The notes under the pieces are model-generated. The model saw only the letters and a program-made list of their open reading frames with translations, was not told where the DNA came from and did no database searches. 64,000 nucleotides of DNA from Burkholderiaceae bacterium (GTDB lineage Bacteria > Pseudomonadota > Gammaproteobacteria > Burkholderiales > Burkholderiaceae_C): contig JBDSDD010000049.1 in assembly GCA_039920745.1 (NCBI GenBank), positions 1,524-65,523 on the forward strand, read 5' to 3'. The translations under genes and the position numbers were made by a program. Below, piece by piece: positions 1-51,020 of this stretch. How positions within the stretch are numbered: the first letter of the stretch is position 1; each line of letters opens with the position of its first letter.

Positions 1-1
1 C

Positions 2-2356
2 TACAAGCCTCGATCCCTGGCGGTCGACGCCGCGCTCGGCCAGTTCATCGACAACGCGATGCGTGACGACCCGGTTGCCACTCGGATCCGCGTGCCACGC
101 GTGCTCGAGCGCCAAGACTACGGCTGGACCGCCTTCGTCGAACATCGACATGCAGCGGACGCGGCCGAACTCTCCTGTTTCTACCTGGGCATCGGCCACT
201 GGCTGGCCGTGATGCGCCTGGTCAGCGGCAGCGACCTGCACGCCGAAAACCTCATCGCCTGCGGTCCCACGCCGGTGGTGGTGGACTGCGAAACCCTGTT
301 CACGCCCCGACTGAAGGCCATTCCGACGGGCCTGGGCAATGCCGCCGATCGCGCGATGGAGACGATTGCCAGCACGGTTCTCAACTGTGGCCTGCTGCCC
401 GGACGCGGTGCGGGCCTGGGCTGGCGCGGGGTGGACAGCTCCGCACTGGGCTCGCTGCCCGGCCAGCAGCCCAAGCTGCGCCAATTGCAGATCCTGCACA
501 AGCGGTCTGACGAAGCCCGCATCGGCACGCACGAAGTGGACGCCGACCTGTCGCAGAACCACCCGAGCGCCAATCCCGTGCTCGCCGATCACTGGCCTTG
601 CGTGCTGCGCGGGTTCGACCAGCTCACCGCGCGCCTGCAGGCGATGGACGCGCGCGGCGAGATCGAGCCATTGCTGGCACCGTTCCGAGCCTGTCGCATT
701 CGCATCGTGCCGCGTGCCACCGAGGTCTACGCGGAACTCGGTCGCATGCTGTGGCACCCCGTGTCGCTGCACAAGCCGGAGGAGGCCGTGGCGCGTGCGC
801 ACGAGCTGCTGATGCGCATGGGGATGCGCGTGCGCGTCGCGCCGAGCGACCCGGCGGTCGTGGCCGGCGAGGTGGCCGACCTGCTCGACGGCAATGTGCC
901 GTTCTTCACCACCATCGCAGGCCACGGCGTGCTCGAGGCGCCGCGCGGCACCACGTGGATGCGTCCTTGCGATCTCGTCAGCGAAGCGCTTGTCAGCTGG
1001 CGCGCGGCCGACTTCGGTCTCGAGCGCCGCGTGATCCAGGCGGCCCTCGTGAGCGCCTACATCAACGACGGATGGATGCCGGAAGAGGTGTTGCTCAAGC
1101 CCGCGCGCATTCATGTCGACGGCCTCGACGCGCGGCGTCGCCGCCAGGCTGCCGGCATCATGTCGGAGCTGGTGGCAGCGGGCATCCATGGCGACGACGG
1201 CACGGTGACCTGGATCGCACCGATCCTCGGCCAGTCCGGATGGGCGGTGCAGCCGCTGGACCAGGATCTGTACAACGGCGCGTCCGGCACCGCCGTGCTG
1301 GTGGCCGCGTACCTGCGCGAGGTCGAGGCCGGACGGGCCGACCCGGTGCCCGGCGTCGATGTGCTGTTGCCGCAGTTGACCCGGATGCTTCACAACGCCG
1401 AGGCGCTGCGCGACCGCCAACGCAGCGAAGTCAAGAAGCCGCGGCCGGGTGCGCCCGGGGGCTTCATCGGCCTGGGCTCGCAGATCTGGGCCTGGTTGCT
1501 GCTGCGCCATTGGGACATCGAACCAGGTGCCGCGATCGAACGCGCCTGTGCGATCGCCGACTACATGCCCGATGCGGTCGCTGCCGACACCGTCAACGAC
1601 ATTCTCATCGGCAAGGCAGGCGCCGTCGTGCCGCTGCTCATGCTGGCGAAGGCCAGCGGTCAGCGCCGTTTCCTGGACATGGCGGTGGACATCGGGGACC
1701 GGCTCTGCGCGGCAGCGCTGGCCACCGGTGACAAGGTGCATTGGCCGCACTCGAGCGGGCCCGATGGCCTCGGCGGTTTCGCGCACGGCGTCAGCGGCAT
1801 CGGCTGGGCGCTGCAAAAGCTCGCCTCGGCCAGTGGGCACGAGCGCTTCGCGAACACCGCAGCCGCGGCGTTTCGCTTCGAAGATTCGCTCTATGACGAG
1901 CAGGAGCAGAACTGGCTGGACATGCGGCGCATCGACGGCGTGCGCACCGCGGCGGCCTGGTGCCATGGCGCGGTGGGCATCGGCCTCGCGCAGGCCGACC
2001 TTCATCCGGGATTGGTCGACGACGCGGCACGCACCAAGGTACGCCGCGCCGCGGCAGCGGCCTGGCGCCAGGGCATGGGCTGGAACCAGAGCCTGTGCCA
2101 CGGCGACTTCGGCTCCGTCGAACTGCTGCTGGTCGCCATCGACGCGGGCCTGGCGCCCGAGGGCATGACGCGCGAGTCGCTGCTGGCCCACGTCGTCGGT
2201 GCGATGGAAACACACGGGCCGGTCAGTGGCATCACGCGCGGCACGTTCTCGCCCGGGCTGTTGCCCGGCCTGGGAGGCGTCGCGTACCAGTTGCTGCGCA
2301 TGCATCCCGACAGTGACTTGCCGTCGCTGCTGACGCTGGCGGGAGGAGCGTTCTGA
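2..2356 (+). CDS. lanM: Class II lanthipeptide synthetase LanM (5'-truncated by window edge)
   Basis: Frame is open from base 2 (YKPRSL...). Dehydratase motifs DLHAEN, VDCETLF, RIVPRATEVY; LanC-like cyclase motifs GFAHG, WCHG, SLCHG. Confidence 0.92.
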   Translation, partial: YKPRSLAVDAALGQFIDNAMRDDPVATRIRVPRVLERQDYGWTAFVEHRHAADAAELSCFYLGIGHWLAVMRLVSGSDLHAENLIACGPTPVVVDCETLFTPRLKAIPTGLGNAADRAMETIASTVLNCGLLPGRGAGLGWRGVDSSALGSLPGQQPKLRQLQILHKRSDEARIGTHEVDADLSQNHPSANPVLADHWPCVLRGFDQLTARLQAMDARGEIEPLLAPFRACRIRIVPRATEVYAELGRMLWHPVSLHKPEEAVARAHELLMRMGMRVRVAPSDPAVVAGEVADLLDGNVPFFTTIAGHGVLEAPRGTTWMRPCDLVSEALVSWRAADFGLERRVIQAALVSAYINDGWMPEEVLLKPARIHVDGLDARRRRQAAGIMSELVAAGIHGDDGTVTWIAPILGQSGWAVQPLDQDLYNGASGTAVLVAAYLREVEAGRADPVPGVDVLLPQLTRMLHNAEALRDRQRSEVKKPRPGAPGGFIGLGSQIWAWLLLRHWDIEPGAAIERACAIADYMPDAVAADTVNDILIGKAGAVVPLLMLAKASGQRRFLDMAVDIGDRLCAAALATGDKVHWPHSSGPDGLGGFAHGVSGIGWALQKLASASGHERFANTAAAAFRFEDSLYDEQEQNWLDMRRIDGVRTAAAWCHGAVGIGLAQADLHPGLVDDAARTKVRRAAAAAWRQGMGWNQSLCHGDFGSVELLLVAIDAGLAPEGMTRESLLAHVVGAMETHGPVSGITRGTFSPGLLPGLGGVAYQLLRMHPDSDLPSLLTLAGGAF

Positions 2357-2400
2357 GCGCGGAAACGGCCCCCGTCGAACTCGAGACGCCCTACTGGCGC

Positions 2401-4248
2401 ATGGACGGCCCGACGGCCGGCTCCGCGGGCCGCTGGCTGGCCGTCGAGCGGCTCTGCATGGCCGTGCGCCCGGTCGTCGACGTGCTGGCCCGCGCCGCGC
2501 CTCGGCTGGCCGTGGCCGTCGTCGTGCTTCAACTGGCCTCGGGGCTGATCACCACCGGCGTGTTGCTGGCGAGCGCCGCGGCCATCAATGCGTTGCTGGC
2601 GCACGCGCTCAACGCCGAGCGCCTGCGCGCCGCGCTGCCGGCGATGATCTTCCTGGCGGTCGCCTTCACGATCAAGCTCGCGCTCGACGCCCTGACGACG
2701 CGCGTTCGCGCGGAGTTGTCGCCACGCGTGCACCGCATCGCGCAGGCCCAACTGCTGGAGGCCAGCCTGAAAGTGGAGCTCGCGGCATTCGACGACCCAA
2801 GCTTCTACGACCAGTTGCACCGCGCACGCGATCGGGGCGTGATGCACATGGAGACGGCGACCGACAGCCTGGTCGACGCGCTGGCCGCGCTGGTCGGCGT
2901 GGCAGGCGCCGCGTTGGCCTTGTTCTGGCTCGACCCTGTCCTGCTGCCGGTGCTGGCCGTGGCGCTGCTGCCGCAGGCCTGGGGCGCGTTCGCCGTGGCA
3001 CGGCTGCACATGGCCAGCATGCCGGAGACGGTATCGCTGAACCGCCAAGTGGACATGATGATCGAGCTCGCCACCGATCGCGACAACGCCCCAGAAATCC
3101 GCAGCTACCAGGCGCAGGACTATGTCAGCGCCGAATACGCGCGCAGCGCCGACGCGATGCAGGCCCACCTGGTGCAGCTGGGCGTGGCCGAGGCGCGGGT
3201 GCGCACGCTCGGCAGCGTGTTGTCGGCCCTGGGCGTGGCGTTCACTTTCGGGGTGCTGGGCTGGCTGCTGTGGACCGATCGTCTGCCGCTGGCCGCGGCC
3301 GGCGCCACGCTGTTTGCGGTGCGCACAGCCGGGCAGGCCCTGGAGCGGCTCATGCAAGTGGGCAGTTCGCTGTTCGAGAAAGGCTTGTACCTGGCCGACT
3401 ACCGCGCCTTCATCGAGCAGGCCGCGCAGCGCCAGCGCCCGCTTGCTGGCGCACAGGCCGCTGCGATACCGGCGTTGATCGAACTGGATCGCGTCGGATT
3501 CCACTATGCGGGGCGACGCGACGACCCGGCGCTGCGCGACATCTCGCTGAGCATCCGCGCGGGCGAGACGATCGCGTTCGTCGGCGAAAACGGCTCCGGC
3601 AAGACGACGCTCGCCAAGCTCATCGCGGGCCTCTACCAACCGGCCGAGGGCCACATCCGCTGGGACGGCACCGACATCCGCGACATCGATCCGCGCAGCC
3701 TCGCCGACCGCATCGCGATGGTGCTGCAGCGCCCCGTGCGCTGGCCGCGCAGCGCCAGCCACAACGTGCGCGTGGGACGCCATGCACGCGTCGATCCGGG
3801 CGACACTGCACTCAAGCAGGCGGCCAGCGATTCACGCGCGCAGGAGGTCATCGACCGCCTGCCTCAGGGTTGGGACACCTTGCTGTCACGCACGTTCCGC
3901 GGTGGCGTGGACCTGTCCGGCGGCCAGTGGCAGCGCCTGGCCGTGGCGCGCGGCCTTTTTCGCGACGCCCCGCTGGTGATCTGGGACGAGCCGACCGCCC
4001 CGCTGGACGCCCGCGCCGAGCACGCGGTGTTCGAGTCACTGCGCCAGCTCGCCCGCAATCGCACAGTCATCCTGATCACGCATCGCCTGGCCAGCGTGCG
4101 CAACGCCGACCGCATCTTCTTCCTGGAACGTGGCCGGCTGGTCGAGCAAGGCCGCCATGAAGACTTGCTGGCGGCCGACGGGCGCTATGCCGAGCTCTAC
4201 AAGCTGCAGACGCGCCTGCATGCGCTCGAGGCAGCGTCGACGGCCTGA
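2401..4248 (+). CDS. ABC exporter, fused permease/ATPase, no N-terminal C39 peptidase
   Basis: N-terminal TM helices; Walker A GENGSGKT, signature LSGGQ, Walker B IWDEP, H-loop ITH. Lies directly downstream of lanM. Confidence 0.9.
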   Translation: MDGPTAGSAGRWLAVERLCMAVRPVVDVLARAAPRLAVAVVVLQLASGLITTGVLLASAAAINALLAHALNAERLRAALPAMIFLAVAFTIKLALDALTTRVRAELSPRVHRIAQAQLLEASLKVELAAFDDPSFYDQLHRARDRGVMHMETATDSLVDALAALVGVAGAALALFWLDPVLLPVLAVALLPQAWGAFAVARLHMASMPETVSLNRQVDMMIELATDRDNAPEIRSYQAQDYVSAEYARSADAMQAHLVQLGVAEARVRTLGSVLSALGVAFTFGVLGWLLWTDRLPLAAAGATLFAVRTAGQALERLMQVGSSLFEKGLYLADYRAFIEQAAQRQRPLAGAQAAAIPALIELDRVGFHYAGRRDDPALRDISLSIRAGETIAFVGENGSGKTTLAKLIAGLYQPAEGHIRWDGTDIRDIDPRSLADRIAMVLQRPVRWPRSASHNVRVGRHARVDPGDTALKQAASDSRAQEVIDRLPQGWDTLLSRTFRGGVDLSGGQWQRLAVARGLFRDAPLVIWDEPTAPLDARAEHAVFESLRQLARNRTVILITHRLASVRNADRIFFLERGRLVEQGRHEDLLAADGRYAELYKLQTRLHALEAASTA

Positions 4249-4484
4249 CGCCTGCATTCGCGCCTCCTTCTCGCGCGCAGCGCCGAAGCCGCCGCTCGGG
4301 CATTGGGGCCAGGCCGGCCTTGGAGGCCAACCGCTGGTCAGCGGCAGAGTCAGCACAGGACGTCCGGGCAGCAAAGCGACGGCGCCAGAAGAAGGCACAT
4401 ACTCCCTGCCTGGGGGCGCCTGCATCTCGTCAAGTTGCTGCGCCCCGCCGCCACTGTTCTTGCGCTCAACGTCCACGATTGCCC

Positions 4485-5639
4485 ATGCGACTCTCAGAAT
4501 TCATTTTGACCCATCGTGAGGCCATCCTGGCTGACTGGGTGGAGTTCGCGCGCACGCGGTTGGCAGTGACCCATGGCATGAGCGAGCTGGCACTGCGCGA
4601 CGACGCCGAGGACATCCTGACGGAGGTCGCCCGGGACATGCTCAGTCCGCAGGGAAGCTCGCGTCAGCTCGCCAAATCCCAAGGCATGAACGCGGACGAA
4701 GTCAGTGAACTCGACGAACCGGCCAGAGCGCACGCGCTGCAGCGAGCCCGAAGCGGATTCGAGGTGAATCAGATGGTGGCCGAATATCGTGCGTTGCGGG
4801 CGACGGTGCTGCGCCTCTGGAGCCGCAGTCCGCGTCTGGTCTCCGTCGAAGACATCGACGATGTGACGCGATTCAACGAGGCCATCGACGAGGCATTGGC
4901 AACATCGCTGAGACACTTCGTCACGGAGGTGGACCGAGCTCGCAATCTGTTCCTGGGCGTCCTGGGTCACGACTTGCGCACACCGCTGAGCACCATCGTC
5001 AACTGCGCGAAGACATTGGAACTGCAGCATCCCGAGGGGCACAACGGGGCACAGGCGATTCTTCGCAGCGCCGGCAAGATGAAGTCACTCGTCGATGTCG
5101 TCCTGGCCTACACGCGCAAGAGCCTGGGCGTCACCCTGCCCATCAAACCCGAGGAGATGCTGCTGGAAGATGTCGTACGGGATGCCGTGCAGGAGCTCGA
5201 ACACGCGATCCCTGGGCGGCAGATCGACTACACCAGCGTTGGCGACTCGACGGGCCAATGGGACCGACTGCGCATGGGACAGATGGTGTCCAACGTGGTT
5301 GGAAACGCCTTGAAGTATGGAACCGCCGGGCAAGCTGTGACGGTCACGCTGGATGCGTCGGATCGCGACGAAATCGTCCTCCAGGTCCGCAATCTCGGCT
5401 CCCCGATTCCAGATGCGATGCTCAACGACATCTTCGAGCCGCTGGTGCGCGGAACCAACGTCGTCGGTCATCAGCACGCAGGCGGAGCCGACATGGGATT
5501 GGGCCTGTACATCGCACGCGAGGTGGTTTCAGCCCATCTGGGTTCGATACGGGCCACCTCGTCGGACGAAGCTGGAACTGTCTTCGAGATCCGGTTGCCC
5601 AAGGGAACGATCTGGACGGATGGCGGCTTCGAAAGCTGA
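4485..5639 (+). CDS. Sensor histidine kinase with RsbRD_N-like N-terminal domain
   Basis: MRLSEFI...ILADW...HA..R..SGF N-terminus; H-box GHDLRTPL, N-box NVVGNALKY, G-box GLGLYI. Start chosen at ATG 4485. Confidence 0.85.
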   Translation: MRLSEFILTHREAILADWVEFARTRLAVTHGMSELALRDDAEDILTEVARDMLSPQGSSRQLAKSQGMNADEVSELDEPARAHALQRARSGFEVNQMVAEYRALRATVLRLWSRSPRLVSVEDIDDVTRFNEAIDEALATSLRHFVTEVDRARNLFLGVLGHDLRTPLSTIVNCAKTLELQHPEGHNGAQAILRSAGKMKSLVDVVLAYTRKSLGVTLPIKPEEMLLEDVVRDAVQELEHAIPGRQIDYTSVGDSTGQWDRLRMGQMVSNVVGNALKYGTAGQAVTVTLDASDRDEIVLQVRNLGSPIPDAMLNDIFEPLVRGTNVVGHQHAGGADMGLGLYIAREVVSAHLGSIRATSSDEAGTVFEIRLPKGTIWTDGGFES

Positions 5640-5747
5640 ACGTCCCACGCCAAGGCTTCAAGGCGTCTCGATTGACGACGCCTGGCTCCGGCGCCCTCAA
5701 GCGGACGCTCGAGCGTGTGCGTCGGGGCCCGGGCCAGGCGTTGCCTC

Positions 5748-6920
5748 TCAACGATTCGCCGTCCCCGTCACCTCGACATCCACACGACGATCCGGCTGCA
5801 GGCAGGCGATCAGCTTGGCGCTTGGCTTGTTGCCACGGCAATCCTCCGTCTTCGTTACCGGTTGAGTCTCGCCCTTGCCGATCGTCACGATTTTTGCCGA
5901 ATCGATGCCGCCCGGCCCGGCCAGGTAGGCCTTGACCGCCTCCGCGCGTCGTTGCGACAGCTTCTCGTTGTAGGCGGAGGTGCCCAGTCGATCGGTGTGG
6001 CCCTCGACGGTGATTCGCTCGAACTGCATGCCACGCAGTTCCTGCGCGAAGGTGTTCAGGGCCTCGTCGCCCTTCGTCGTGATCGTGAAACGATCAAAGG
6101 CGAACAGCGTGTCGGCCGCAAAGCTGACGCGGCGCGGGGGCGCCGGCGGCATCGGAGGCGGGGGCGGCGGCGGGGGCGCCATCACGGCCACCGGCGGCGG
6201 GGGCGGCGGCGCAGCGGGCGGTGCCTCGTAGACCTGGGCGACCAGCGGGTGTTCGACCGGCGCGGCGCCGCGTCCGAACGCCCAGACCAGGCCGGCGGAG
6301 AACACGTTGACGTCGCCATGGTTGCCCACCGCATCGTTGACACGATAGCGCTCGGCCTCGCCGCGCAGCATCAAGTTGCGGGTCAGGGCGTACTGCAGGC
6401 CGGCGCCGACCTTGTAGTTGAGCGCGCTCTTGCTCGGATTCGGATCGAGCGCCACCACCGCCCCGGTGCCGCGGAACGTGTCGTGCGCGGTGGCGTACTG
6501 GCCACCGACGCGACCGATGACGGACAGGTTCTCGTAGATCGGCAGCGTGCCGACCAGGTCCAGGTTCAGTCCGTGCAGGCGGATGCGCCCGTCGAGCGTG
6601 CCCGCGGGCACGGTCGTGGAGGTGAAGCCGAATCGACCCAGGCTGAAGTAGCCGCCCTCGAGGCCGACGTAGCGATTGAACTGGTAGCCGGCGAAGGCCT
6701 TCCACGCCTTGTCCTTTTCATCGCGCGTCATCGACGACGTGACCAGCCCCTGGGACAGCAGTTCGGCATTGATGCGGGGCTCGTCGATCTTGGCCCGCGA
6801 TTGGCCGAACGAGCCACCGAGATAGAAATAGCCGGGCTCGTCCTGGGCCAAGGCAGGGGCTGCGAACAGGGAGGCCAGGCCGGCGAGGCCCGCCAGGCGA
6901 AATGCGACGAGGGACTTCAT
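5748..6920 (-). CDS. OmpA-family protein (N-terminal beta-barrel, Pro-rich linker, C-terminal peptidoglycan-binding domain)
   Basis: Signal peptide MKSLVAFRLAG...ALA; barrel strands (GYQFNRYVGLEGGY); poly-Pro linker; VEGHTDRLG...NEKLSQRRA...DRRVDVEV. Confidence 0.92.
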   Translation of the reverse strand: MKSLVAFRLAGLAGLASLFAAPALAQDEPGYFYLGGSFGQSRAKIDEPRINAELLSQGLVTSSMTRDEKDKAWKAFAGYQFNRYVGLEGGYFSLGRFGFTSTTVPAGTLDGRIRLHGLNLDLVGTLPIYENLSVIGRVGGQYATAHDTFRGTGAVVALDPNPSKSALNYKVGAGLQYALTRNLMLRGEAERYRVNDAVGNHGDVNVFSAGLVWAFGRGAAPVEHPLVAQVYEAPPAAPPPPPPVAVMAPPPPPPPPMPPAPPRRVSFAADTLFAFDRFTITTKGDEALNTFAQELRGMQFERITVEGHTDRLGTSAYNEKLSQRRAEAVKAYLAGPGGIDSAKIVTIGKGETQPVTKTEDCRGNKPSAKLIACLQPDRRVDVEVTGTANR

Positions 6921-6976: not shown

Positions 6977-8842
6977 TCACGGCGCCACGATCGTCGTGTT
7001 GACCAGCGTCACCGAGGCCGTGAGGCCGATTGCGCGGCCCACCAGCGTCGTCTGGATGGTCTGGCCAGCGGTCGAGATCGTCACGCCGGCCGGCGCGATG
7101 ATCGTGCCCACCATCAGGCTGCCGGTCTCGATGCGGGCGGCACTGCCGACTTGCCAGAAGACATTGGCGGCGCGCGCGCCGTTGATCAGCATCACGTGGC
7201 GCGGCGTGGCGGGCAGGCCCACCGTCAGTGCCGAGGCGCTCTGGAACACCCACGTCGCGTTGGCATCGCCCTGGGCGTCGAGCACCAGGTCACCGGTGGT
7301 GATGTCGAACGTTCCCAGGGCCGACGTGTAGGTGCCCGGCAGCAGTGTCTGGCCGCCAAGTTGGCCGGCACCCGGGTCGCTGCCAGGAGGCATCGCAGCC
7401 AGTGCGTTGTAGGCGGCCTGTGCATCGGCACGCGCCTGCGTGGCGATGGCCATCGTGGCCGGCGTGCCCGGTGCGGGCGGCGCGCAGTTGATCGCACCGT
7501 TGACTGCGCCGACGTTGAGCGGGGTTTGCGTGTAGACGTGCAGCGAGTCGTGGAAGCCGGTCACCAGCGTGCAGGCGGCCGTTGTTCCGAGGTCGCCCTG
7601 GACAACCGTGTTGATGCCCTGGTTGGTGACACCCGCGCCGCCACCGAAGGCGCCGAAGGTGGCCGCGCCACCGAGCGCCACCGCCGGCGTGCAGGCTTGC
7701 GTGCCGGTGCTGAAGCTCCAGACCTTGGCCATGGCCAGCGGGTTGCCGGCCAGGTCCGTCGCGCCGGTGGTGATCGTCGCCACGAACGTGGTGCTGGGCG
7801 CGAAGCCGGCCGCGTCAGTCGGCACGAAGGTGGCGAGCATGGCGACCGCGTCGTAGGACACGGTACCCGGTACCGCGACGCCGCCGGCCGTCACGCTGAA
7901 CGTGGCGGCGTTGATGGTGGTCGGGTCCATGGCTTCGCTGAACGAGGCGGTGAGGGTCTTCGTCAGGCAATTGCCGACACTGGTGTCCGCCGGGTTGACC
8001 GACAGGATGGTCGGCGCGGTGACGTCACCGATGGCCGAGGTGGTGAAGGTCCACACATGGTCGCTTGCCGCGGGCAGCATCGACGCGTCCCCGGCCAGGC
8101 CATTGCCGGCGAGATCGGTCGCCGCCGACGTGATCGTGGCGGTGAACAGCGTGTTGCTGGCCAGTGGCGACGTCGTCGGCGTGAAGGTGGCCGTGCGCGA
8201 CGCCACCGAGTAGTTGACCGTGCCGACGACGGCCGTGCCCAGCGTCGTGTTCGTGAGCTTGAAGGTGGTGGCGGACAGGCTGGCCGGTGCCATGTCTTCG
8301 CTGAAGGCCGCGGTGATGCGGGTGTTCGGGGGCGTGGCGGCGGCTGCGTTCACGGGCACCGTGACGATGACGCTGGGACGCGTGACGTCACCCGACGCCG
8401 CTGTCTGGAAGCTCCAGGTGAACGGCAGCGCCAGCGCGACGCCGGTGGTATCGGTGACGCTGGTGCTCAACGTCGCCGAGCACAGCGTGTTCGCGGGCAG
8501 TGCCGCGTTGGGCGTCAGGATCGCCGTGTTCGTGGCGGCGTCGTAGGTCACCGCGGCAGCGACGGCCGAGCCGGTCGGGCAGGCCAGCGTGAAGCTGGTC
8601 GCGGTCACCGTGGCCGCGGAAATCGGCTTGCTGAACGTGGCACGCACATCACTGGAGGTGGCGACGCCGCTGACCACCGGCGAAGTGGCGGCCGGTACCG
8701 TCGACGTCACGCTCGGGCGCACGCTGACGCCCGGTGCGCCCAGGATCGGATCCGTGCCGCCGGAACAGCCCGCGACGAGGACCGCGAGCAAGGCAGGCAG
8801 CCACGCTCCGGGGAAGGTATTGAAACGCAGAAGTCGGGTCAT
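6977..8842 (-). CDS. Lipoprotein with three Ig-like (Big_5/SbsA-type) repeats and a C-terminal DUF3494 ice-binding-like domain
   Basis: Lipobox LVAGC; three repeats of P.V..V.P...ATFS..M..(T/S)F.L; DUF3494 motifs TLLPGTY, DAQGDANATWVFQ, ANVFWQVGS, GTIIA. Confidence 0.88.
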   Translation of the reverse strand: MTRLLRFNTFPGAWLPALLAVLVAGCSGGTDPILGAPGVSVRPSVTSTVPAATSPVVSGVATSSDVRATFSKPISAATVTATSFTLACPTGSAVAAAVTYDAATNTAILTPNAALPANTLCSATLSTSVTDTTGVALALPFTWSFQTAASGDVTRPSVIVTVPVNAAAATPPNTRITAAFSEDMAPASLSATTFKLTNTTLGTAVVGTVNYSVASRTATFTPTTSPLASNTLFTATITSAATDLAGNGLAGDASMLPAASDHVWTFTTSAIGDVTAPTILSVNPADTSVGNCLTKTLTASFSEAMDPTTINAATFSVTAGGVAVPGTVSYDAVAMLATFVPTDAAGFAPSTTFVATITTGATDLAGNPLAMAKVWSFSTGTQACTPAVALGGAATFGAFGGGAGVTNQGINTVVQGDLGTTAACTLVTGFHDSLHVYTQTPLNVGAVNGAINCAPPAPGTPATMAIATQARADAQAAYNALAAMPPGSDPGAGQLGGQTLLPGTYTSALGTFDITTGDLVLDAQGDANATWVFQSASALTVGLPATPRHVMLINGARAANVFWQVGSAARIETGSLMVGTIIAPAGVTISTAGQTIQTTLVGRAIGLTASVTLVNTTIVAP

Positions 8843-43918: not shown

Positions 43919-44170
43919 TCAGGCGGCCAGTTGGGCCGGCGCGGCGGGGACGATCGGGATCACGCGGGCGGCGTTGGCGACGCGCCCCTCGGCGAGCGTC
44001 GAGCGGCAGGCGCGGGCCACGTCGAAGGTGTCGTGCGCGCACTCCAGACAGCTGCCGCAGGCGGTGCCCACGCGCAATTCGTCCTGCAGTTCGTCGAACG
44101 AGGCGCAGCCGTGGCGCACTGCGCGCTCGATGTCACGGTCGGACACCCGGTGGCACACGCAGACGATCAC
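43919..44170 (-). CDS. bfd: Bacterioferritin-associated ferredoxin
   Basis: IVCVCHRVSD...VGTACGSC [2Fe-2S] motif; GTG start. Confidence 0.88.
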   Translation of the reverse strand: MIVCVCHRVSDRDIERAVRHGCASFDELQDELRVGTACGSCLECAHDTFDVARACRSTLAEGRVANAARVIPIVPAAPAQLAA

Positions 44171-44252
44171 AGGGCTTGCTCCTGCGCGGCGGCGATCCTG
44201 CTGACGGCGATGGACGACATGCGAGGCGATTCCGTTGGTTGACCCTGACGTA

Positions 44253-44281
44253 ACTATAACGCGAATCGTTCGCATTTGCAA
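44253..44281 (-). promoter_or_regulatory. Sigma70 promoter of bfd overlapped by a Fur box
   Basis: Minus strand TTGCAA-N17-TATAGT; the 19-mer AATGCGAACGATTCGCGTT (44258-44276) resembles the Fur consensus. Confidence 0.72.
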
Positions 44282-44358
44282 AACAGAAAGGCCTGCTTTC
44301 GTGGCGCAGTTCTGGGCCTGGCGCCGCAGATCCCTCTCCTGCTTCCCGCCCCGCAATG

Positions 44359-44384
44359 AAAAAAGCGCAGCCAGGCTGCGCTTT
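44359..44384 (-). terminator. Rho-independent terminator after bfr
   Basis: AAAGCGCAGC-3nt-GCTGCGCTTT hairpin with a T run on the minus strand. Confidence 0.8.
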
Positions 44385-44407
44385 CGGGGTCGCGGAAGGC
44401 GAGGTAC

Positions 44408-44884
44408 CTACTCGATCTCGCCCATCATCGACTGATGGTAGTTCTGCTCGCCAACCTTGGCGGCGACGTCCAACTGCGTCTCGAGGAAGTCGATGTGCTC
44501 CTCGGTGTCGTCGAGGATCTTCTGCAGCAGGTCACGCGAGACATAGTCGCGCACGCTCTCGCAGTGGGCGATGCCGTCCTTGATCGTGGCCTGCGCGCCG
44601 GTCTCGAGCTTGAGGTCGCAGTTCATGCACTCCAGGAGGTTCTCGCCGATCATCAGCTTGCCCAGATCCTGCAGGTTGGGCAGGCCATCGAGCAAGAAGA
44701 TGCGGTCCATGAGCTTGTCGGCGTGCTTCATCTCGCCGATCGACTCCTCGTATTCCTTCTTCGCGATCTTGTCGAGACCCCAGTGCTTGTACATCCGGTA
44801 GTGGACGAAGTACTGGTTGATAGCCGTCAGTTCGTTCTTCAGCTGGGCCTGAAGGTGCGCGATGACCTGGGGGTCGCCTTTCAT
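44408..44884 (-). CDS. bfr: Bacterioferritin
   Basis: MKGDPQVI..L...LKNELTAINQYF.H, EEMKHAD-like GEMKHAD, EEHIDFLETQL. Confidence 0.95.
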   Translation of the reverse strand: MKGDPQVIAHLQAQLKNELTAINQYFVHYRMYKHWGLDKIAKKEYEESIGEMKHADKLMDRIFLLDGLPNLQDLGKLMIGENLLECMNCDLKLETGAQATIKDGIAHCESVRDYVSRDLLQKILDDTEEHIDFLETQLDVAAKVGEQNYHQSMMGEIE

Positions 44885-44959
44885 GCGGAAACTCCTCGCA
44901 ACGCGTGTTCGTCGCAAACGCGCTCATCCTAGCGCGAATGCAACGCCGAACCGCGCCTT

Positions 44960-45508
44960 TCAGTGGCCGCCCGAATCCGCGTTGCGGCTCGATTCGAACA
45001 GGAACCAGGCGCGCCGTTCGGTCTCGTCGATCCAGTTCTCGATGAGGCTGGCGGAGGCGATGTCCTTGTGGTCGTCGCACACGTCGTGCGCGGCGCGCAG
45101 GCTGGCGGCGAGTTGCTGGTTGTCCTGGTGCAACTCGGCCAGCATGTCCAGCGGCGTCACGAACTCGGCGTCGTTGTCGGACACGCGCTGCAGCCTGGCG
45201 ATGTGCCCGATGGACCGCAGCGTCACGCCGCCGAGCTTGCGCACGCGCTCGGCGAGCGGATCGGTCATCGCGTAGAGCTGGTCGCCCTGGTCGTCAAGCA
45301 GCAGGTGATAGTCGCGGAAATGCGGCCCGCTCATGTGCCAGTGGAAGTTCTTGGTCTTCAGGTAGATCGCGAACACGTCGGCCAGGATCGCGTTGAGCGC
45401 GCCGCTGATGTCCTTGGTCGCCTTGGCGCCCAGGTCGGTGGGCGTGGCGATGGCCGCGCCACGACGGCTCTTGGCGGCTGCGGCCTTCTTCGGGGACAGC
45501 GTCTTCAT
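44960..45508 (-). CDS. dps: Dps-family DNA protection protein
   Basis: KTKNFHWHMSGPHFRDYHLLLDDQ, D.LAER, E.ERRAWFL. Confidence 0.9.
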   Translation of the reverse strand: MKTLSPKKAAAAKSRRGAAIATPTDLGAKATKDISGALNAILADVFAIYLKTKNFHWHMSGPHFRDYHLLLDDQGDQLYAMTDPLAERVRKLGGVTLRSIGHIARLQRVSDNDAEFVTPLDMLAELHQDNQQLAASLRAAHDVCDDHKDIASASLIENWIDETERRAWFLFESSRNADSGGH

Positions 45509-45759
45509 GCGGTGGACCTCCTGATGAGTTGGTAATCGCCGTCGCTGCGCGAAGGCGGCCGACCAAGGTTACTCGCGCAACTATCTCCCCATCGTAGGAC
45601 AGGCACTCGACCGCAGGGAAATGGGTGCCCCGGCCACTGTTTATCCGGAGTTTGCCGAACTGTGTCCAGGTTGATATAGCGGGGGGTTTCCGGCGCTCAT
45701 CGGGGATTCCACGGAGCCTCCTGCGCCTAGTATTCGATCATCGAAACCGGAGTCTCACC

Positions 45760-46401
45760 ATGACGCAAGTCCACTCTTCCGGTGGCGCCAGGGGCCCCTT
45801 CGCCACTCCCGTGTCGAAAGGAAAGGCCAAGGCGGCCGCCCAACCCGACAAGAAGATCGCCGTTCCCAAGGCGATCGAGGCCAAGCCGTCGGCGCATGCG
45901 GTCAAGAACGGGACACAGGTCTCCTTCGGCAAGCAGGCGCTGCACGCCCTCGAGAGCACCAGCGAATTCATCGGCAAGGCGCTGCTGACCGGCGTCGAGG
46001 ACGTGGGCGAGGCCGCCTACTACACCGTCAAGGCGGTGGGCACCGGCGTGGTCGACGTGGCCAAGGGCCTGGAGGCAGCAGCCGTCGACGGCGCCAAGGG
46101 CCTGGGCGTGGGCCTGGCCGACACGGCCACCGCGATCGGCCATGGTGTCGTCCATGTCGAGAACGCGCTGGGCGACGTCTGGGGCATGGCCACGCAAGGC
46201 ATGTCGTCGGCCACGACGCTGGCCACGACGCTGGGCGCAGACGCCCAGGTGCTGGTCACCAACGTGGGCGCCGCCGCCACCGACGTGGGCGTGGGCGCCA
46301 AGGCCGTGCTGTCGGGCGTGGGCAGCGTCGCCAGCACCGCGGCCCGCTACGGCACCTACGTCGTCAAGCAGGCCGGCAAGGCCATCAACGAGCTCACCTG
46401 A
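45760..46401 (+). CDS. Hypothetical protein with tandem 11-residue amphipathic repeats
   Basis: GGAG RBS; K/A/P-rich N-terminus, TQVSFGKQAL motif, then seven consecutive 11-mers (aa 72-148). Confidence 0.8.
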   Translation: MTQVHSSGGARGPFATPVSKGKAKAAAQPDKKIAVPKAIEAKPSAHAVKNGTQVSFGKQALHALESTSEFIGKALLTGVEDVGEAAYYTVKAVGTGVVDVAKGLEAAAVDGAKGLGVGLADTATAIGHGVVHVENALGDVWGMATQGMSSATTLATTLGADAQVLVTNVGAAATDVGVGAKAVLSGVGSVASTAARYGTYVVKQAGKAINELT

Positions 46402-46438
46402 GCGTTGGCGCGGGCGCGGGCGTCACGCACGCACACGC

Positions 46439-47138
46439 GAGTTCCACCAGGCCCGGCTGTCGATCGTCGACCCCATCGTTTCCCGCGCCTGTGCGGGCAC
46501 ATTGCTGGCAATGAGCCACGCTTTGCAGAAGCGCGTTGTGGCCATGAATCCAGGCGGCGGCTTCCACCATGCCTTCCGCGATCATGGCGAAGGCTTCTGC
46601 ATCTACGCAGACGTCGCTGCGGCACTTGCTGCGGTTCGAGCGCAAGGACTGCTCTCCGCGGACGATCCGGTGGCGATCATCGACCTGGATGCCCACCGGG
46701 GAAACGGCGTTTGGGGTCTGTGCGGCAGCGACCCGTCCGTGCACGTGATGGATCTAAAGCGCCCCGGTCCATCCCGGGTTCTTTCCTGGGTCAGTTGAGG
46801 AATTCCCCTTTCAGCTCCCGATCAAGGCACAAACCACGGACGAGGCTTGCCTTGCGACGCTACGTGAAGAGCTTCCGCTCTTTCTTGCGTCAATGCCGCG
46901 CAAACCTGCGCTTGCGATCCACAACGCCGGCACGGACGTGCTTGCCGGTGACCCTGTGGGTCGGCTCGCCGTGTCCGAAGCCGGCGTCGTAGAACGCGAC
47001 GCCATGGTGCTGGACGCGCTGAGCGGACAAGGCATTCCAACTGTTGTCGTGACGAGCGGGGGCTATTCGCCCAAGTCGCATGAACTGATTGCGCAACTCG
47101 CATGGTGTGTGATGCAACTACACCACGTGCCGGCCTGA
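46439..47138 (+). pseudogene. Fragmented Zn-dependent histone-deacetylase-family gene (class IV-like)
   Basis: Frame 1: GGGFHHA..HGEGFCIYAD, IIDLDAHRGNG. Frameshift/TAA near 46755. Frame 2: ...NAGTDVLAGDPVG...SGGY. No intact 5' end. Confidence 0.8.
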
Positions 47139-47220
47139 GTGTTGCGATCCGGCATCGGCGTAGCTCGAAACGTCGAGTTCCACTGTCCTGAGCTCGATAT
47201 GGCGGCGCGAAACCCGCGTG

Positions 47221-47268
47221 CCCGAAAGCGGCCTTCCCCAACCGACAGGTCATGGCCGACTGCGGACA
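47221..47268 (+). repeat. Degenerate composite repeat, copy A
   Basis: CCCGAAAGCGGCC...TGGCCGACTGCGGACA; 33/48 ungapped identity to copy B at 47692. Confidence 0.6.
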
Positions 47269-47370
47269 GATCCAGAATATAGACAGGACGGTACGTTCAC
47301 CGCTTGCCCTTGCCTGATGGGCTGAGTCATGGCGCCAGCCGACCTGAATGCGCACGTTGGCGAACAGCGC

Positions 47371-47384
47371 TGGCCGACTGCGGA
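47371..47384 (+). repeat. Exact second copy of the repeat core TGGCCGACTGCGGA
   Basis: Identical 14-mer at 47253-47266 and 47371-47384. Confidence 0.7.
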
Positions 47385-47400
47385 GATCGGTGTCGTCCGG

Positions 47401-47637
47401 TTACCCACCGTCGCCACGGCGCCGTTGCCTCTCCTCTTCAAGTCGCTCGGCCTCCCGAGACATGTTGGCCCGGATTTTCGCGATCCGCGCAGACTCTTCC
47501 TCGAGTCGCGCGAGCTCCTTTCCGGAGAACATCAAGTTGGCCGGCAGCAGCGCCTTGCACGACTCGCAAGCTGCAACTCGCCGGTTGAAGACAGTGAAGC
47601 CACAGGCCGGGCATTTGAATTTGGATGAGTCGGTCAT
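47401..47637 (-). CDS. Small zinc-ribbon plus coiled-coil protein (78 aa)
   Basis: CPAC-x12-CESC followed by a charged helical tail (LEEESARIAKIRANMSREAERLEEERQRRR). Confidence 0.7.
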   Translation of the reverse strand: MTDSSKFKCPACGFTVFNRRVAACESCKALLPANLMFSGKELARLEEESARIAKIRANMSREAERLEEERQRRRGDGG

Positions 47638-47691
47638 CGAGTTAGGGCTGCCCGCGGCGACATGGAACAAGTTGCACTGAACCGTACGCTA

Positions 47692-47739
47692 CCCGATACC
47701 GGACGGTCCCGCCCGGTTGCTCCTGGCCGGCTGCGGGCA
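47692..47739 (+). repeat. Degenerate composite repeat, copy B
   Basis: CCCGATACCGGAC...TGGCCGGCTGCGGGCA, with the same 32-bp spacing of subunits as copy A. Confidence 0.55.
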
Positions 47740-48045
47740 TCCCTCAACGACAACCGGACGGCAGCTTCGCGCTGGAGAGGCGCCGCTTCGCGTTTTCAGC
47801 GCCGATGCCCGGACGCTCTGCGCGACTCAATGCTTGCCGGGGGCAAGCGATGGCTGAACCCCCAGCTCAGCAATGCCGCGGCAAGCAGAGCAAAGAGAGC
47901 GATGGTGCCGTTGGAGGCCATGTGGCCGCTCAAGTTGTGCATTGAAAGTTCCGAAAACTCCCGCAAGAGCGCGAAAGTTCCGACGCAGGCCTGGCATTCG
48001 CCATCCAAGTCGACATTCCGTCGCCCGAGAGAGAAGGCAACAACA

Positions 48046-49164
48046 ATGGACCCGAGACAAGCCAACCTGCAGCGACACCGCCTGCGGATGACGTTGCTTT
48101 CTGTCGTCAATTCGTTGCTCCAGTCCATCGTGATCGGCCTCTATGCCGCCTCCGAAGCCACAACCTGGTCGATCGCCGCTGCCTTCGCGGCGGCCAGCCT
48201 GGGCAGCACCGGGCTGTTTGCGATCGGGGTCAGCGCGGGTTGGCTGGTGAAGCTGGGGGACGCGCGATTGCTGATTGCGCAACTGGCCGCAAACTTCGCC
48301 ATCCAGATCGCCTTCCTGATCGCGGCGCCGCCACTGTGGATGATCTTCCTCGCCTCGACGCTCATCACCTGCACCTACGCCATGGTGGCGTTCACGCCGC
48401 GCCAGTTCACCTGGCTCTGGCTCGGCTACGGGGCCATCACGGCACTGGCGCTGTTTGCCGGACGTGACCGATTCGAGACGCCGGCACCAACGCCTTTCAA
48501 CGTCGCGATACTGTGGCTCTTCTTCTTCATGGGCGTGCGTCGCCTCGCGTTGACCGGCGCGCAGTTCAGCCGCCTGCGCGAACAACTGTCCGAGAAGAAC
48601 AAGCAGTTGACGATCCTTCTCGAGCGCAACAAGGAGTTGGCCAATCACGACGACCTGACCGGCACGTTCAATCGACGCCAGCTCATGCAATTCCTGGTCG
48701 AGGAACGCGACCGAGCCGGCCGCGCGCGCTCTTCGTTCTCGATCGCCATGCTGGACCTCGACCACTTCAAGACGATCAATGACCGATTCGGACACGCGGG
48801 AGGCGACGCGGCACTCAAGCGATTCTGTGCGCTCACGTTTGCCTCGATGCGCGCCACCGATCGCTTCGCGCGCTATGGCGGTGAGGAGTTCGTCCTGCTG
48901 ATGCCCATGACGACGTCGATCGACACCGCCTGCCAGGCTGCGGAACGGATCCGCCACGTGATCGCCAGCGACGATTGGCGCGTCACCTTCGGCGTCGACT
49001 GCACGCCGGTCACCGTGTCGGCTGGGGTGGCCACGTGGCGGCAGGACGAGACAGTCGAAGATCTGCTGGCGCGCGCCGATGCAGCGCTCTACGAGGCCAA
49101 GCGCCGGGGCAGGAACCTGTGTGTCGCCGCTGCCCCGCTGCCGATCGTCGTGCCAGCGCCCTGA
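48046..49164 (+). CDS. Membrane-bound diguanylate cyclase
   Basis: About 6 TM helices; DDLTGTFNRR, DLDHFKTIND.FGH..GD, I-site RATD, active site GGEEF. Confidence 0.92.
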   Translation: MDPRQANLQRHRLRMTLLSVVNSLLQSIVIGLYAASEATTWSIAAAFAAASLGSTGLFAIGVSAGWLVKLGDARLLIAQLAANFAIQIAFLIAAPPLWMIFLASTLITCTYAMVAFTPRQFTWLWLGYGAITALALFAGRDRFETPAPTPFNVAILWLFFFMGVRRLALTGAQFSRLREQLSEKNKQLTILLERNKELANHDDLTGTFNRRQLMQFLVEERDRAGRARSSFSIAMLDLDHFKTINDRFGHAGGDAALKRFCALTFASMRATDRFARYGGEEFVLLMPMTTSIDTACQAAERIRHVIASDDWRVTFGVDCTPVTVSAGVATWRQDETVEDLLARADAALYEAKRRGRNLCVAAAPLPIVVPAP

Positions 49165-49341
49165 AATCAGGGGTCGAAGCCAGTCGCGACCTTGGCAGCG
49201 GGCCACGCGAGGCTCGCGCGCGCGACGCGGCAATCGCCTCCGAAGCGACCTCGCAGTCAAGCTTCATCGACATCGAGCCGAGACCGAAATCCGTTTCGAA
49301 TTTCGCGCGAATCCACACAGCGTGTCGAAGCGCCATCCCGC

Positions 49342-49779
49342 CTAATATCGGTGCCGCGCGACCTTGCGCCAGCGGCTGCCCCACACGATCAGCCACAGCA
49401 GCACCCCCTGCAGCGGCAGGCGCAGCCAGAGCAGCCACACCGGCACGTCGAACTGCTCGTGGATGTGCAACATGTAGATGTTGGCCGGCGTCAGCGCCAG
49501 CGTCAGCGCGAACAGGCACCAGCCCGCGAGGCGGCGCGTCCACGGCAGCACGAGACCGAACGCGCCCGCGAGCTCCAACAGGCCGGTGAGCAGCACGACG
49601 TCGCGCGCATCGGGGATCTGCGGGGGCACGATGCGCACCTCGAGATCGGTAAGCACGAAGTGTGCGATGCCGCCGAAGAAGAACCAGCAGAAAACGAACA
49701 CCAGCGCCACGCGTTGCCAGCGTGTGCCGCGCCGCTCGGGCTGTGACGATTCAGCGGAGACGAAGGGCAGGTAGTTCAC
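49342..49779 (-). CDS. DoxX-family membrane protein
   Basis: GGIAHF...TGLLELAGAFGL...GWCLFAL....TPANIYM. Start could instead be ATG 49803. Confidence 0.8.
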   Translation of the reverse strand: MNYLPFVSAESSQPERRGTRWQRVALVFVFCWFFFGGIAHFVLTDLEVRIVPPQIPDARDVVLLTGLLELAGAFGLVLPWTRRLAGWCLFALTLALTPANIYMLHIHEQFDVPVWLLWLRLPLQGVLLWLIVWGSRWRKVARHRY

Positions 49780-49976
49780 GCGCGGCACCCTCCCCTTGGG
49801 CATGGGTGGGATCGGTACAGGCAGTGCAGCGGGAATCTCGTCACGGGTCTCTCGGCCGCGTTCACGGGGCGCGGCATGGAATCAGGGTCGGGCGGACATG
49901 ATCGCCCACGCTTTGCCCGACCTGGGCTTTCGTGACGAAAAAAACGTAAACGTTTGCGCCCGCGGTCGAGCTGTGC

Positions 49977-51020
49977 TCATCGGCCCGAGTCGGCGAGCTG
50001 CTTGCGCCGGAGTTCGCCCTGGCGCTCGAACATCCAGCCCGGATACTCGGCCGGCAGCGCGCTGGCGTCGCCCAGCGCAGTCAACTCGGCGGCGGTGAGG
50101 GTGACGTTCGTGGCAGCGATGTTGTCGGCCAGCTGGTCGGACCGCTTCGCGCCGACGATCACGCTGGTGACCTGCGGCTGGTGCAGCAGCCAGGCGAGCG
50201 CGATCTGCGCCACCGAGACGCCACGGGCCTCGGCGAGGGGCCGCATCGCATCGATGACGAGGTCGGCGCGCGCGCGATCGACCGGCGGGAAGTCGAAGCT
50301 CTGGCGGCGGCTGCCGGCTTCGCTCGTCGCACCGGCCTTGTACTTGCCGCTCAGCAGGCCGCCGGCCAGCGGGCTCCACACCATCAGGCCCAGGCCCTCG
50401 CTCCGCAGCATCGGCACGATCTCGCGCTCGAGGTCGCGCCCGGCCACCGTGTAGTAGGCCTGCAGCGACTCGAAGCGCGACAGCCCCAGCCGCGCGGACA
50501 CGCCCAGCGCCTTGACGATCTGCCAGGCGGCCCAGTTGGACACGCCCACGTAGCGCACGTCGCCCTGGCGCACCAGCTGGTCGAGCGCGCGCACCGTCTC
50601 CTCGATCGGCGTCGCCGGATCGAAGCCGTGGATCTGGTACAGGTCGATGTGCGCCAGTTGCAGCCGCTTGAGGCTGGCCTGGAGGCCGTCCATGATGTGG
50701 CCGCGCGAGGCGCCGCGGCCATTGGAGCCGGGGCTGGTCTCGCCGAATACCTTGGTCGCGACGACGACGCTCTCGCGCGCGATCTTCAGGTTCTTCAACG
50801 ACTGGCCGGTGAGCTGCTCCGAGGCGCCGCCGGAGTAGACGTCCGCCGTGTCGATGAAGTTGATGCCGGCATCGACCGCCTGGCCCACCAGGCGGTCGAC
50901 CTCGTCCTGGCCCAGGTTGCCGATCTTGCCCCAGATGCCCTCGCCGCCACCGAAGGTCATGGTGCCCAGGCACAGCTCCGAGACGAACAGGCCGGTACGA
51001 CCGAGAGGATGGTTGCGCAT
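49977..51020 (-). CDS. Aldo/keto reductase
   Basis: LGRTGLFVSELCLGTMTFG, FIDTADVY, ATKV, DLYQIH, YVGVSN, WSPLAGGLL. Confidence 0.93.
   Translation of the reverse strand: MRNHPLGRTGLFVSELCLGTMTFGGGEGIWGKIGNLGQDEVDRLVGQAVDAGINFIDTADVYSGGASEQLTGQSLKNLKIARESVVVATKVFGETSPGSNGRGASRGHIMDGLQASLKRLQLAHIDLYQIHGFDPATPIEETVRALDQLVRQGDVRYVGVSNWAAWQIVKALGVSARLGLSRFESLQAYYTVAGRDLEREIVPMLRSEGLGLMVWSPLAGGLLSGKYKAGATSEAGSRRQSFDFPPVDRARADLVIDAMRPLAEARGVSVAQIALAWLLHQPQVTSVIVGAKRSDQLADNIAATNVTLTAAELTALGDASALPAEYPGWMFERQGELRRKQLADSGR

Follow-up and report, generated by a model that had tools for sequence, protein, structure and literature searches.

A decayed repeat-bounded gene module in a Burkholderiaceae contig points to a probable integron-like but non-canonical cassette system

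What kind of system sets a small gene between copies of a short repeat when no recombinase is encoded nearby? This question is raised by a stretch of 64,000 nucleotides from a Burkholderiaceae bacterium (contig JBDSDD010000049.1), here called the window, in which a gene for a 78-aa zinc-ribbon protein (47401..47637, minus strand) is flanked by repeat copies at 47371 and 47692. A preliminary description of this DNA had seen this arrangement, which we reproduce, and had proposed that the repeats are recombination sites of a cassette-capture system acting in trans. The part of this proposal that stands is that the repeats belong to a family of sites that bounds exchangeable modules: the sites form arrays, lie on one strand and coincide with homology breakpoints at their core in two comparisons. 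The recombination itself is a step that we infer. We consider an integron-like but non-canonical cassette system the best explanation, with a confidence slightly above even, and the window to hold a relic of it, inside a 2.9-kb island that is missing from a related strain.

The repeat pair is found as it had been described. Positions 47221-47268 and 47692-47739 are identical at 33 of 48 positions without gaps, and the 14-mer TGGCCGACTGCGGA occurs exactly at 47253 and at 47371, and with 12 of 14 matches at 47724. The two subunits, 32 bp apart, that had been noted within the repeat are the two conserved blocks of the element, its 5' core YCGGCCA and its 3' block GCTTTCGGG, read from the opposite strand. 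Inside the window, pairs with at least 33 of 48 identities within 600 bp occur 10 times, compared with 0.2-0.5 times in Markov simulations, exact repeats of 14 nt or more at the same distance occur 8 times (0.9-1.5 in the simulations), and the 14-mer with up to two mismatches occurs three times against 1.6 expected. The repeat is therefore not prominent inside the window, and ten such pairs and eight such 14-mers would suit a chance similarity in GC-rich DNA. However, a profile built from 24 copies at other loci, without any window sequence, selects exactly two places in the 64 kb, 47216-47263 (E 4.6e-8) and 47682-47734 (E 6e-6), both on the minus strand. In addition, the orthologous gene is flanked by the same sites at four other loci. 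Chance is ruled out by this profile, and we regard its probability as negligible. A profile scan of this kind had been suggested in the preliminary description, and it recovers the window sites; the repeat is separable from the background only via its relatives and not by statistics within the window. The two 48-bp repeats are the only good copies in the window of a site of ~45-50 nt. In the copy at 47371 only the tail and core are intact and the body is degenerate (profile E 0.4-5.6). The window copies are degenerate, as had been stated.

The relatives reveal what the element is. Sixteen loci were fetched around homologs of the zinc-ribbon gene. In the closest ones (L001, L002, L004, L007, L008 and L009), CCGCAG-TCGGCC starts 11-17 nt past the stop codon, and in L004, L007 and L009 a ~50-nt counterpart of window positions 47684-47739 lies ~96-99 nt ahead of the start codon. 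L007 also shows the general pattern of small ORFs (open reading frames) on the same strand with one copy of the element per gap. With an iterated nhmmer profile, 192 kb yield 21 copies at E<1e-3, at least 11 of them not in the seed, and L034-L036 yield more. All copies lie on the ORF strand, in spacers of L001, L002, L004, L007/L034/L035, L008 and L009, and there are no copies elsewhere in those loci or in the remaining 61 kb of the window. An array of small co-oriented ORFs with one site between each, the sites being on the ORF strand, is found in L007/L034/L035, L001, L002 and L004. The hosts of these arrays are related Burkholderiales from soil and sediment, and the genes are mostly unannotatable.

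The consensus of the element is AGYCGGCCA-G.AGCGGTCGTTCGCGA.CG.CCGCTTT-CGGGTA(GGC). Read on the gene strand, the site consists of A-G-Y-CGGCCA-G, a weakly palindromic middle around GGTCGTTCGCGACC and then GGCTTTCGGG, often with TAGGC next, which is present at the 3' end in 8 of 26 copies only. The copies are ~65% alike over 45 nt and lie 7-60 nt past stop codons, and the distance from the site to the next start codon ranges from 7 to more than 100 nt. A stem is possible in most copies.

The borders of the modules become visible when closely related blocks are compared. L004 and L009 share a single 363-bp block with 7 mismatches (98% identity), which extends between the upstream and the downstream core and ends in ...CCGCAGTCGGCCA; the flanks have 31-39% identity and the neighbourhoods are unrelated. 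From exactly AAGTCGGCC on, L034 and L035 match with 100% identity for 3192 bp, and they are unrelated upstream of it. Both independent comparisons break exactly at the 8-10-nt core. Contigs of the metagenome with the window's organism add to this. In run X1, window positions 47724-47766 (tail and core) are joined to another element body, and in a contig of run X7, which carries a homologous gene, homology stops at 47371. Misassembly is unlikely because the shared core has ~10 nt, far below the assembler's k of 141.

The same distinctive variant of the upstream site is present in the window, L004, L007 and L009, while the seven downstream sites all diverge after GTCGGCCA. Since the upstream sites are shared and the downstream sites differ, the unit runs from one core through site body, leader, gene and tail to the next core. 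The site belongs to the downstream gene and travels with it. Whole modules (site, leader, gene and tail) occur in different neighbourhoods, and the homology break is the core at the 5' end of the site.

Are these sites attC sites of an integron? Across all attC sites, conservation is limited to one stretch, the AAC triplet of the R box at which the strand is cut (Nivina 2016). A scan of the window sites and the loci for complementary R''(RYYYAAC)/R'(GTTRRRY) pairs detects canonical ones in L005, L015 and L016 only; the window sites and the arrays L001, L002, L004 and L007-L009 have none. The ends of the element read GYCGGCC and, in those copies that have TAGGC, GGTAGGC, neither of which holds AAC or GTT. 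A covariance model (R1), aligned from 9 attCs of class-1 integrons and used as a proxy for the IntegronFinder criterion, recovers all 8 held-out canonical attCs (E 1e-9 to 0.09) and none of 27 elements at E<=10, also with filters off. Using tblastn, IntI1 (a query validated at 100% identity on thousands of plasmids) has no match at E<=10 in the window, L001-L024 and L034-L036, ~300 kb in all. The polarity differs as well: an integron cassette is a gene with its downstream attC and a crossover at the 3' end, whereas the module conserved here is a site with its downstream gene and a break at the 5' core. Nor does an IntI with the IntI-specific domain stand beside an array, as it would in a complete integron. 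A CALIN is defined as at least two attC sites within 4 kb with no intI nearby (Cury 2016); three clustered sites without an integrase are present here, and by the proxy tests they would not count as attC.

The sites are thus not canonical integron attC sites. There is a local resemblance to attCs of the aadB/aadA type (TTCGCG...CGGCTT, and GGTAGGC versus GTTAGGC), and a distant evolutionary link between the element and attC is conceivable. An alignment of the 3' end of the site with the L'-R' boxes of attC was considered and is weakened by the low share of copies with TAGGC. A CRISPR array (clustered regularly interspaced short palindromic repeats) has identical 24-48-nt repeats at a regular spacing of ~60-80 nt; the copies here are ~65% alike, they are spaced by 118-1200 nt, and their intervals contain ORFs. 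The preliminary description, according to which the repeats fit neither attC nor CRISPR rules, agrees with these results.

The cargo of the window module, which had been called an orphan gene, is no orphan. The protein has a zinc ribbon of the CPxCG...CxxC type (CPACG...CESC), a helical region and a C-terminal RRRGDGG, and its homologs form 40 clusters with 54-91% identity and 19 invariant columns. Named sources are Rhodoferax, Ideonella, a Polaromonas isolate and a 'Vitreoscilla' metagenome-assembled genome. Searches of NCBIfam and PADLOC give no match for the cargo proteins. More distant homologs, with 50-67% identity, are the cargo of canonical integron cassettes with GCCTAAC...GTTAGGC attC sites of 78 or 129 nt. 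These loci are L005 (Polaromonas sp. CT11-55; 4381-4509 and 5016-5075), L010 (1107-1160), L015 (584-712) and L016 (154-231, 675-752 and 1224-1301). No IntI is present in their fetched flanks, and the loci are therefore CALIN-like. The distant homologs are bona fide integron cassettes, and this connects the gene family with integrons.

Upstream of the first canonical cassette in L010 (1-333, minus strand), and in the matching part of L005, the N-terminus of an IS110-family transposase is recognised by eye in divergent orientation; this may be an attC-targeting element of the IS1111 type. Viral contigs contain no relatives of the zinc-ribbon gene and no pattern matches for the site, and plasmids contain no relatives of the gene, so that an origin of the cargo from phages or plasmids is unsupported.

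Which enzyme could act on the sites? No recombinase is found in the 64-kb window by Pfam on 17 ORFs, by reading the other translations by eye or by tblastn with IntI1 and with the small recombinase described below, in agreement with the earlier statement that the window lacks one. Any enzyme must therefore act in trans. In L035, a tyrosine recombinase gene (PF00589) stands in divergent orientation 120 nt from the first site of the array, with an element-only unit between them. Full-length homologs have 207 aa and are found in 451 plasmid records across Proteobacteria. The L035 recombinase and its homologs match IntI1 over 64 aa of the catalytic region only, and among solved structures the small recombinase has no close sequence relative. 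The L035 gene occupies positions 123-647 (minus strand) of its contig, and next to it, at 1-109 (plus strand), is the remnant of an IS (insertion sequence), the C-terminus of a rve-type transposase (...FNTVHPHSSLKMRSPREF).

Thirteen plasmid contexts of recombinase homologs were examined. The Polaromonas plasmid pH6NP1 (L038) encodes a 75%-identical homolog with a site 117-155 nt upstream on the opposite strand, and this site scores 15.4 bits versus a maximum of 8.9 among 298 control segments. On a Paraburkholderia megapolitana plasmid (L047), three half-sites lie in spacers at most 3.5 kb from a recombinase homolog. Two of the other contexts are marginal and the rest are negative. The ~207-aa non-IntI tyrosine recombinase, seen beside one array and beside single sites on two Burkholderiales plasmids, is a lead as the candidate enzyme.

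Both plasmids show further details. On pH6NP1 the good site upstream of the recombinase (4822-4860, minus strand) and a weak partial site downstream of it (5724-5743, plus strand) are inverted relative to each other, and the recombinase with these sites could be a small self-contained unit. The half-sites of L047, at 2113-2137, 6293-6315 and 7014-7037 in spacers near the recombinase homolog, form a sister family of sites, which shares the core and first arm (GYCGGCCA.rAsCGGyCG) and has a different 3' half (GTCGACAATC).

We suggest that a site-specific recombinase acting in trans, most likely one of the tyrosine type, has its crossover point at the core. The system would work like an integron, in that gene cassettes would be captured, stacked and excised. 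It would use its own site, a polarity of site to gene opposite to that of the integron and probably its own enzyme, which may be the ~207-aa recombinase. A literature search for a described non-integron cassette system with such sites returned integron work only. It can even be speculated that Burkholderiales have, besides integrons, another and independent system for the capture of gene cassettes. Each cassette gene would then be preceded by a ~45-nt site whose AGYCGGCCAG core is the crossover point, these sites would be recombined by a ~207-aa tyrosine recombinase widespread on proteobacterial plasmids, and the system would draw on the integrons' pool of small genes. This wider proposal is tentative, and we hold it to be rather doubtful as a whole.

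Several observations weigh against a non-canonical cassette system. Judged by the window alone, the repeats are at background level. The polarity rule comes from one cassette family and one array pair, the attC test used a proxy model, not IntegronFinder, and the comparisons draw on metagenomic contigs. The recombinase of L035 is a 174-aa fragment whose last ~35 codons were lost to the IS insertion, L001, L002, L004 and L009 have no recombinase within 4-6 kb, and strong sites near a recombinase gene are found in 3 of 14 contexts, which is a thin link. No circular junctions are seen. Presence and absence at the repeat boundaries, a check put forward in the preliminary description, gave no support: none of the contigs of eight metagenomes has precisely lost the zinc-ribbon cassette, and only absence of the whole island is seen, although contigs hide rare variants. 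A syntenic empty site, sought via orthologues of the diguanylate cyclase next to the array, is not found, and the contexts of these orthologues differ too. Synteny is poor at this distance in general, and a different neighbourhood therefore counts only for the blocks with 98-100% identity. Finally, a hairpin lends no help. In the covariation analysis 64.7% are paired versus 66% in shuffles, single-copy DNA folds are inconsistent and RNAalifold gives no consensus. The hairpin was dropped as evidence for these reasons; the GTCCGC-N-GCGGAC hairpin mentioned in the preliminary description is not a feature of the element family, and the proposed hairpin has no covariation support.

How do other explanations account for these observations? 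If the sites were highly divergent attC sites, the window would hold a CALIN-type remnant that depends on an ordinary integron integrase from another locus. Integrons, too, commonly have small genes arrayed in one orientation, ORF-less units and clusters that lack an integrase (Cury 2016), and the occurrence of the same gene family in canonical cassettes as well as the local likeness to aadB/aadA-type attCs agree with this. However, the AAC/GTT triplets (Nivina 2016) are absent at both ends, and the proxy model misses every element while finding all held-out canonical sites. Further, the polarity of a site that moves along with the gene downstream of it, and has the break at its 5' end, is opposite to that of attC; a top-strand cut at R'' would turn the cassette round, and no natural case of it has been observed (Nivina 2016). 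With no IntI in ~300 kb, and with a sole adjacent recombinase of 207 aa that resembles IntI1 in the generic catalytic region only, we consider divergent attC sites improbable. The sites could also be an intergenic repeat that has spread in accessory regions and has no role in moving genes, resembling a terminator, a REP (repetitive extragenic palindromic) sequence or a MITE (miniature inverted-repeat transposable element), with modules arising from ordinary rearrangement. The position of the element shortly past stop codons, the stem that is possible in most copies and the lack of an adjoining recombinase in most arrays are as expected for such repeats. This is unlikely, however, given that there are no inverted pairs, that all copies are on one strand relative to the genes and that ~300 kb, 61 kb of the window among them, contain no copy apart from those in the arrays. 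Neither the layout of GTAG followed by a palindrome nor a RAYT (REP-associated tyrosine transposase) or Y1 transposase is found, the latter among the called genes, and scans for promoters and terminators at the window sites are negative. Above all, two recent exchanges break exactly at the 10-nt core, and exchange driven by RecA is disfavoured because copies ~65% alike over 45 nt are too short and too divergent.

An element that invariably precedes an ORF and moves together with it might, instead, be a binding site or promoter-leader element of a small-gene regulon, with a regulatory and not a recombinational role. The distance to the start codon is too variable for this to be attractive, ORF-less units exist, the promoter scan gives no sigma-70-like match and the homology breaks at the core would be left unexplained; we think this explanation very unlikely.

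With the integron-like but non-canonical system as the preferred explanation, the feature in the window can be described as the decayed remains of a mini-array, in which a single gene cassette, a unit without an ORF and a third site are left and for which no present function is obvious. On the minus strand, the array begins with the tail of the unit upstream of site A (47766-47737), which is the piece found together with the core in front of a different element body in the contigs of the same metagenome (X1, records 5 and 6). Site A (47682..47739, minus) is the copy upstream of the zinc-ribbon gene, with its core CCGCAG|CCGGCCAG at 47724-47736, then the body and ...CCGGTATCGGGTAGCGTACGG; it is the distinctive variant that L004, L007 and L009 also have upstream of their genes. 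The leader from site A to the start codon (47638..47681, minus) is conserved along with the gene in alignments of the relatives. The zinc-ribbon gene follows as the cassette cargo, and this ORF has weak Pfam zinc-ribbon matches. Next are the cassette tail (…CCGATCTCCGCAG) and the core TCGGCCA (47371..47400, minus); the core starts 17 nt past the stop codon, and homology to the relatives stops here, with BLAST boundaries at 47371/47372 against L001, L004, L009 and L007.

The core is overlapped by the decayed element body (47336-47383) of the following 118-nt ORF-less unit (47267..47370, minus), which has the tail GGATCTGTCCGCAG. Beyond tail and core this unit has no significant similarity to the zinc-ribbon cassette, and it is not recognisable as a deletion derivative of it. 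Last comes site C (47216..47266, minus), a well-preserved copy with its core at 47254-47265 and GCTTTCGGG at 47221-47229, beyond which lies the 3' end of a deacetylase pseudogene on the other strand. Just 5' of the core, GATnnCCGCAG is present in three consecutive units of the window (47254-47274, 47372-47390 and 47725-47743) and is missing from the cassettes of other gene families; these shared ends may reflect a local duplication or an extended site.

The two neighbours are as first described, a pseudogene on the left and a diguanylate cyclase on the right, both confirmed by Pfam. The pseudogene of the histone-deacetylase family (46478..47138, plus) is 5'-truncated and frameshifted: PF00850 is matched at profile positions 81-172 and 228-295 in two frames, and the first ~80 positions are missing. 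Contigs of relatives have an additional C after 46470 and an additional AT after 46751 in this gene, and these indels may be the frameshifts behind the pseudogene. The GGDEF diguanylate cyclase (48046..49164, plus; Pfam 4e-40) is outside the array and has a conserved block of its own, 47923-49147, as given by the limits of homology to its orthologues. The ~120 nt before its start (47923-48045) are ~82% conserved with orthologues from unrelated neighbourhoods, and the alignments suggest a conserved leader or regulatory region.

All parts of the relic and both neighbours are contained in a strain-specific island of ~2.9 kb (46402..49340) with a GC content of 62% compared with ~69%. The island is absent in a ~91%-identical relative, whose contigs in two sediment metagenomes join 46401-46403 to 49339-49367. 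At this junction the relative has 37-40 other bases between the flanks, and the island lies between the convergent genes 45625-46401 and 49342-49803. Rfam has no match at E<=1 in 44000-51000. Further away in the window, the translations at 59-4248 resemble, by eye, the C-terminal, LanC-like portion of a class II lanthipeptide synthetase and then an ABC transporter/ATPase. An iron-storage cluster is found at 43919-45508 (minus), with, as read by eye, a bacterioferritin-associated ferredoxin-like gene, a bacterioferritin-like gene and a Dps/ferritin-like gene, the last one (44960-45508) confirmed by Pfam.

The interest of the locus lies in the family to which the window remnant points. To our knowledge, no well-described system other than the integron stacks promoterless genes singly at a dedicated site, and the tools for integron detection are tuned to attC and IntI. 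If a different site, a reversed polarity and a different small recombinase are indeed combined here, part of the environmental 'cassette metagenome' would be invisible to current integron finders. The origin of cassette systems would become testable, and so would the passage of genes between both systems, given that they have the zinc-ribbon gene in common. A compact recombinase with a 45-nt site could also be a useful tool.

It remains to place the element among known systems. Ends of a known IS or MITE would be terminal inverted repeats with a target duplication; no inverted partner copies of the element are seen. REP sequences and bacterial interspersed mosaic elements (BIMEs) with their RAYTs are similar in being short, GC-rich, partly palindromic extragenic repeats of proteobacteria whose enzyme is encoded elsewhere. 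REPs are, however, dispersed genome-wide, often as inverted pairs, and have a 5' GTAG, whereas the present elements occur only in arrays, on one strand and with a conserved non-palindromic 5' core, and no RAYT is among the called genes. The Xer-dependent pdif modules of Acinetobacter plasmids are likewise a cassette-like system outside the integrons that acts in trans, in which gene modules delimited by short sites are shuffled by a recombinase from another locus. The pdif sites have 28 bp (XerC/XerD, 11-6-11) and alternate in orientation; the elements here have 45 nt, are all in direct orientation and do not resemble dif. The candidate enzyme, with ~200 aa that are mostly catalytic domain and an R..H-x-x-R..Y region, is like the small tyrosine recombinases without an arm-binding domain, of the FimB/FimE and Xer types, although neither an inversion switch nor a dif site is present here and no close relative has a solved structure.

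A further comparison is with integron arrays and CALINs. The elements differ from attC in lacking AAC/GTT triplets and RYYYAAC/GTTRRRY boxes, and are missed by the attC covariance model. The element goes with the gene downstream of it and has the break at its 5' end, whereas attC goes with the upstream gene and has the break at its 3' end. The recombinase beside one array has ~207 aa without the extra domain specific to IntI, and no IntI is found. What is common to both is the architecture, in which small, co-oriented and mostly unknown genes are separated by one partly palindromic site of ~50 nt each, together with ORF-less units, clusters without a neighbouring integrase and a divergent tyrosine recombinase that heads one array. 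They also share their cargo, as the zinc-ribbon gene family of the window is found in canonical cassettes too.

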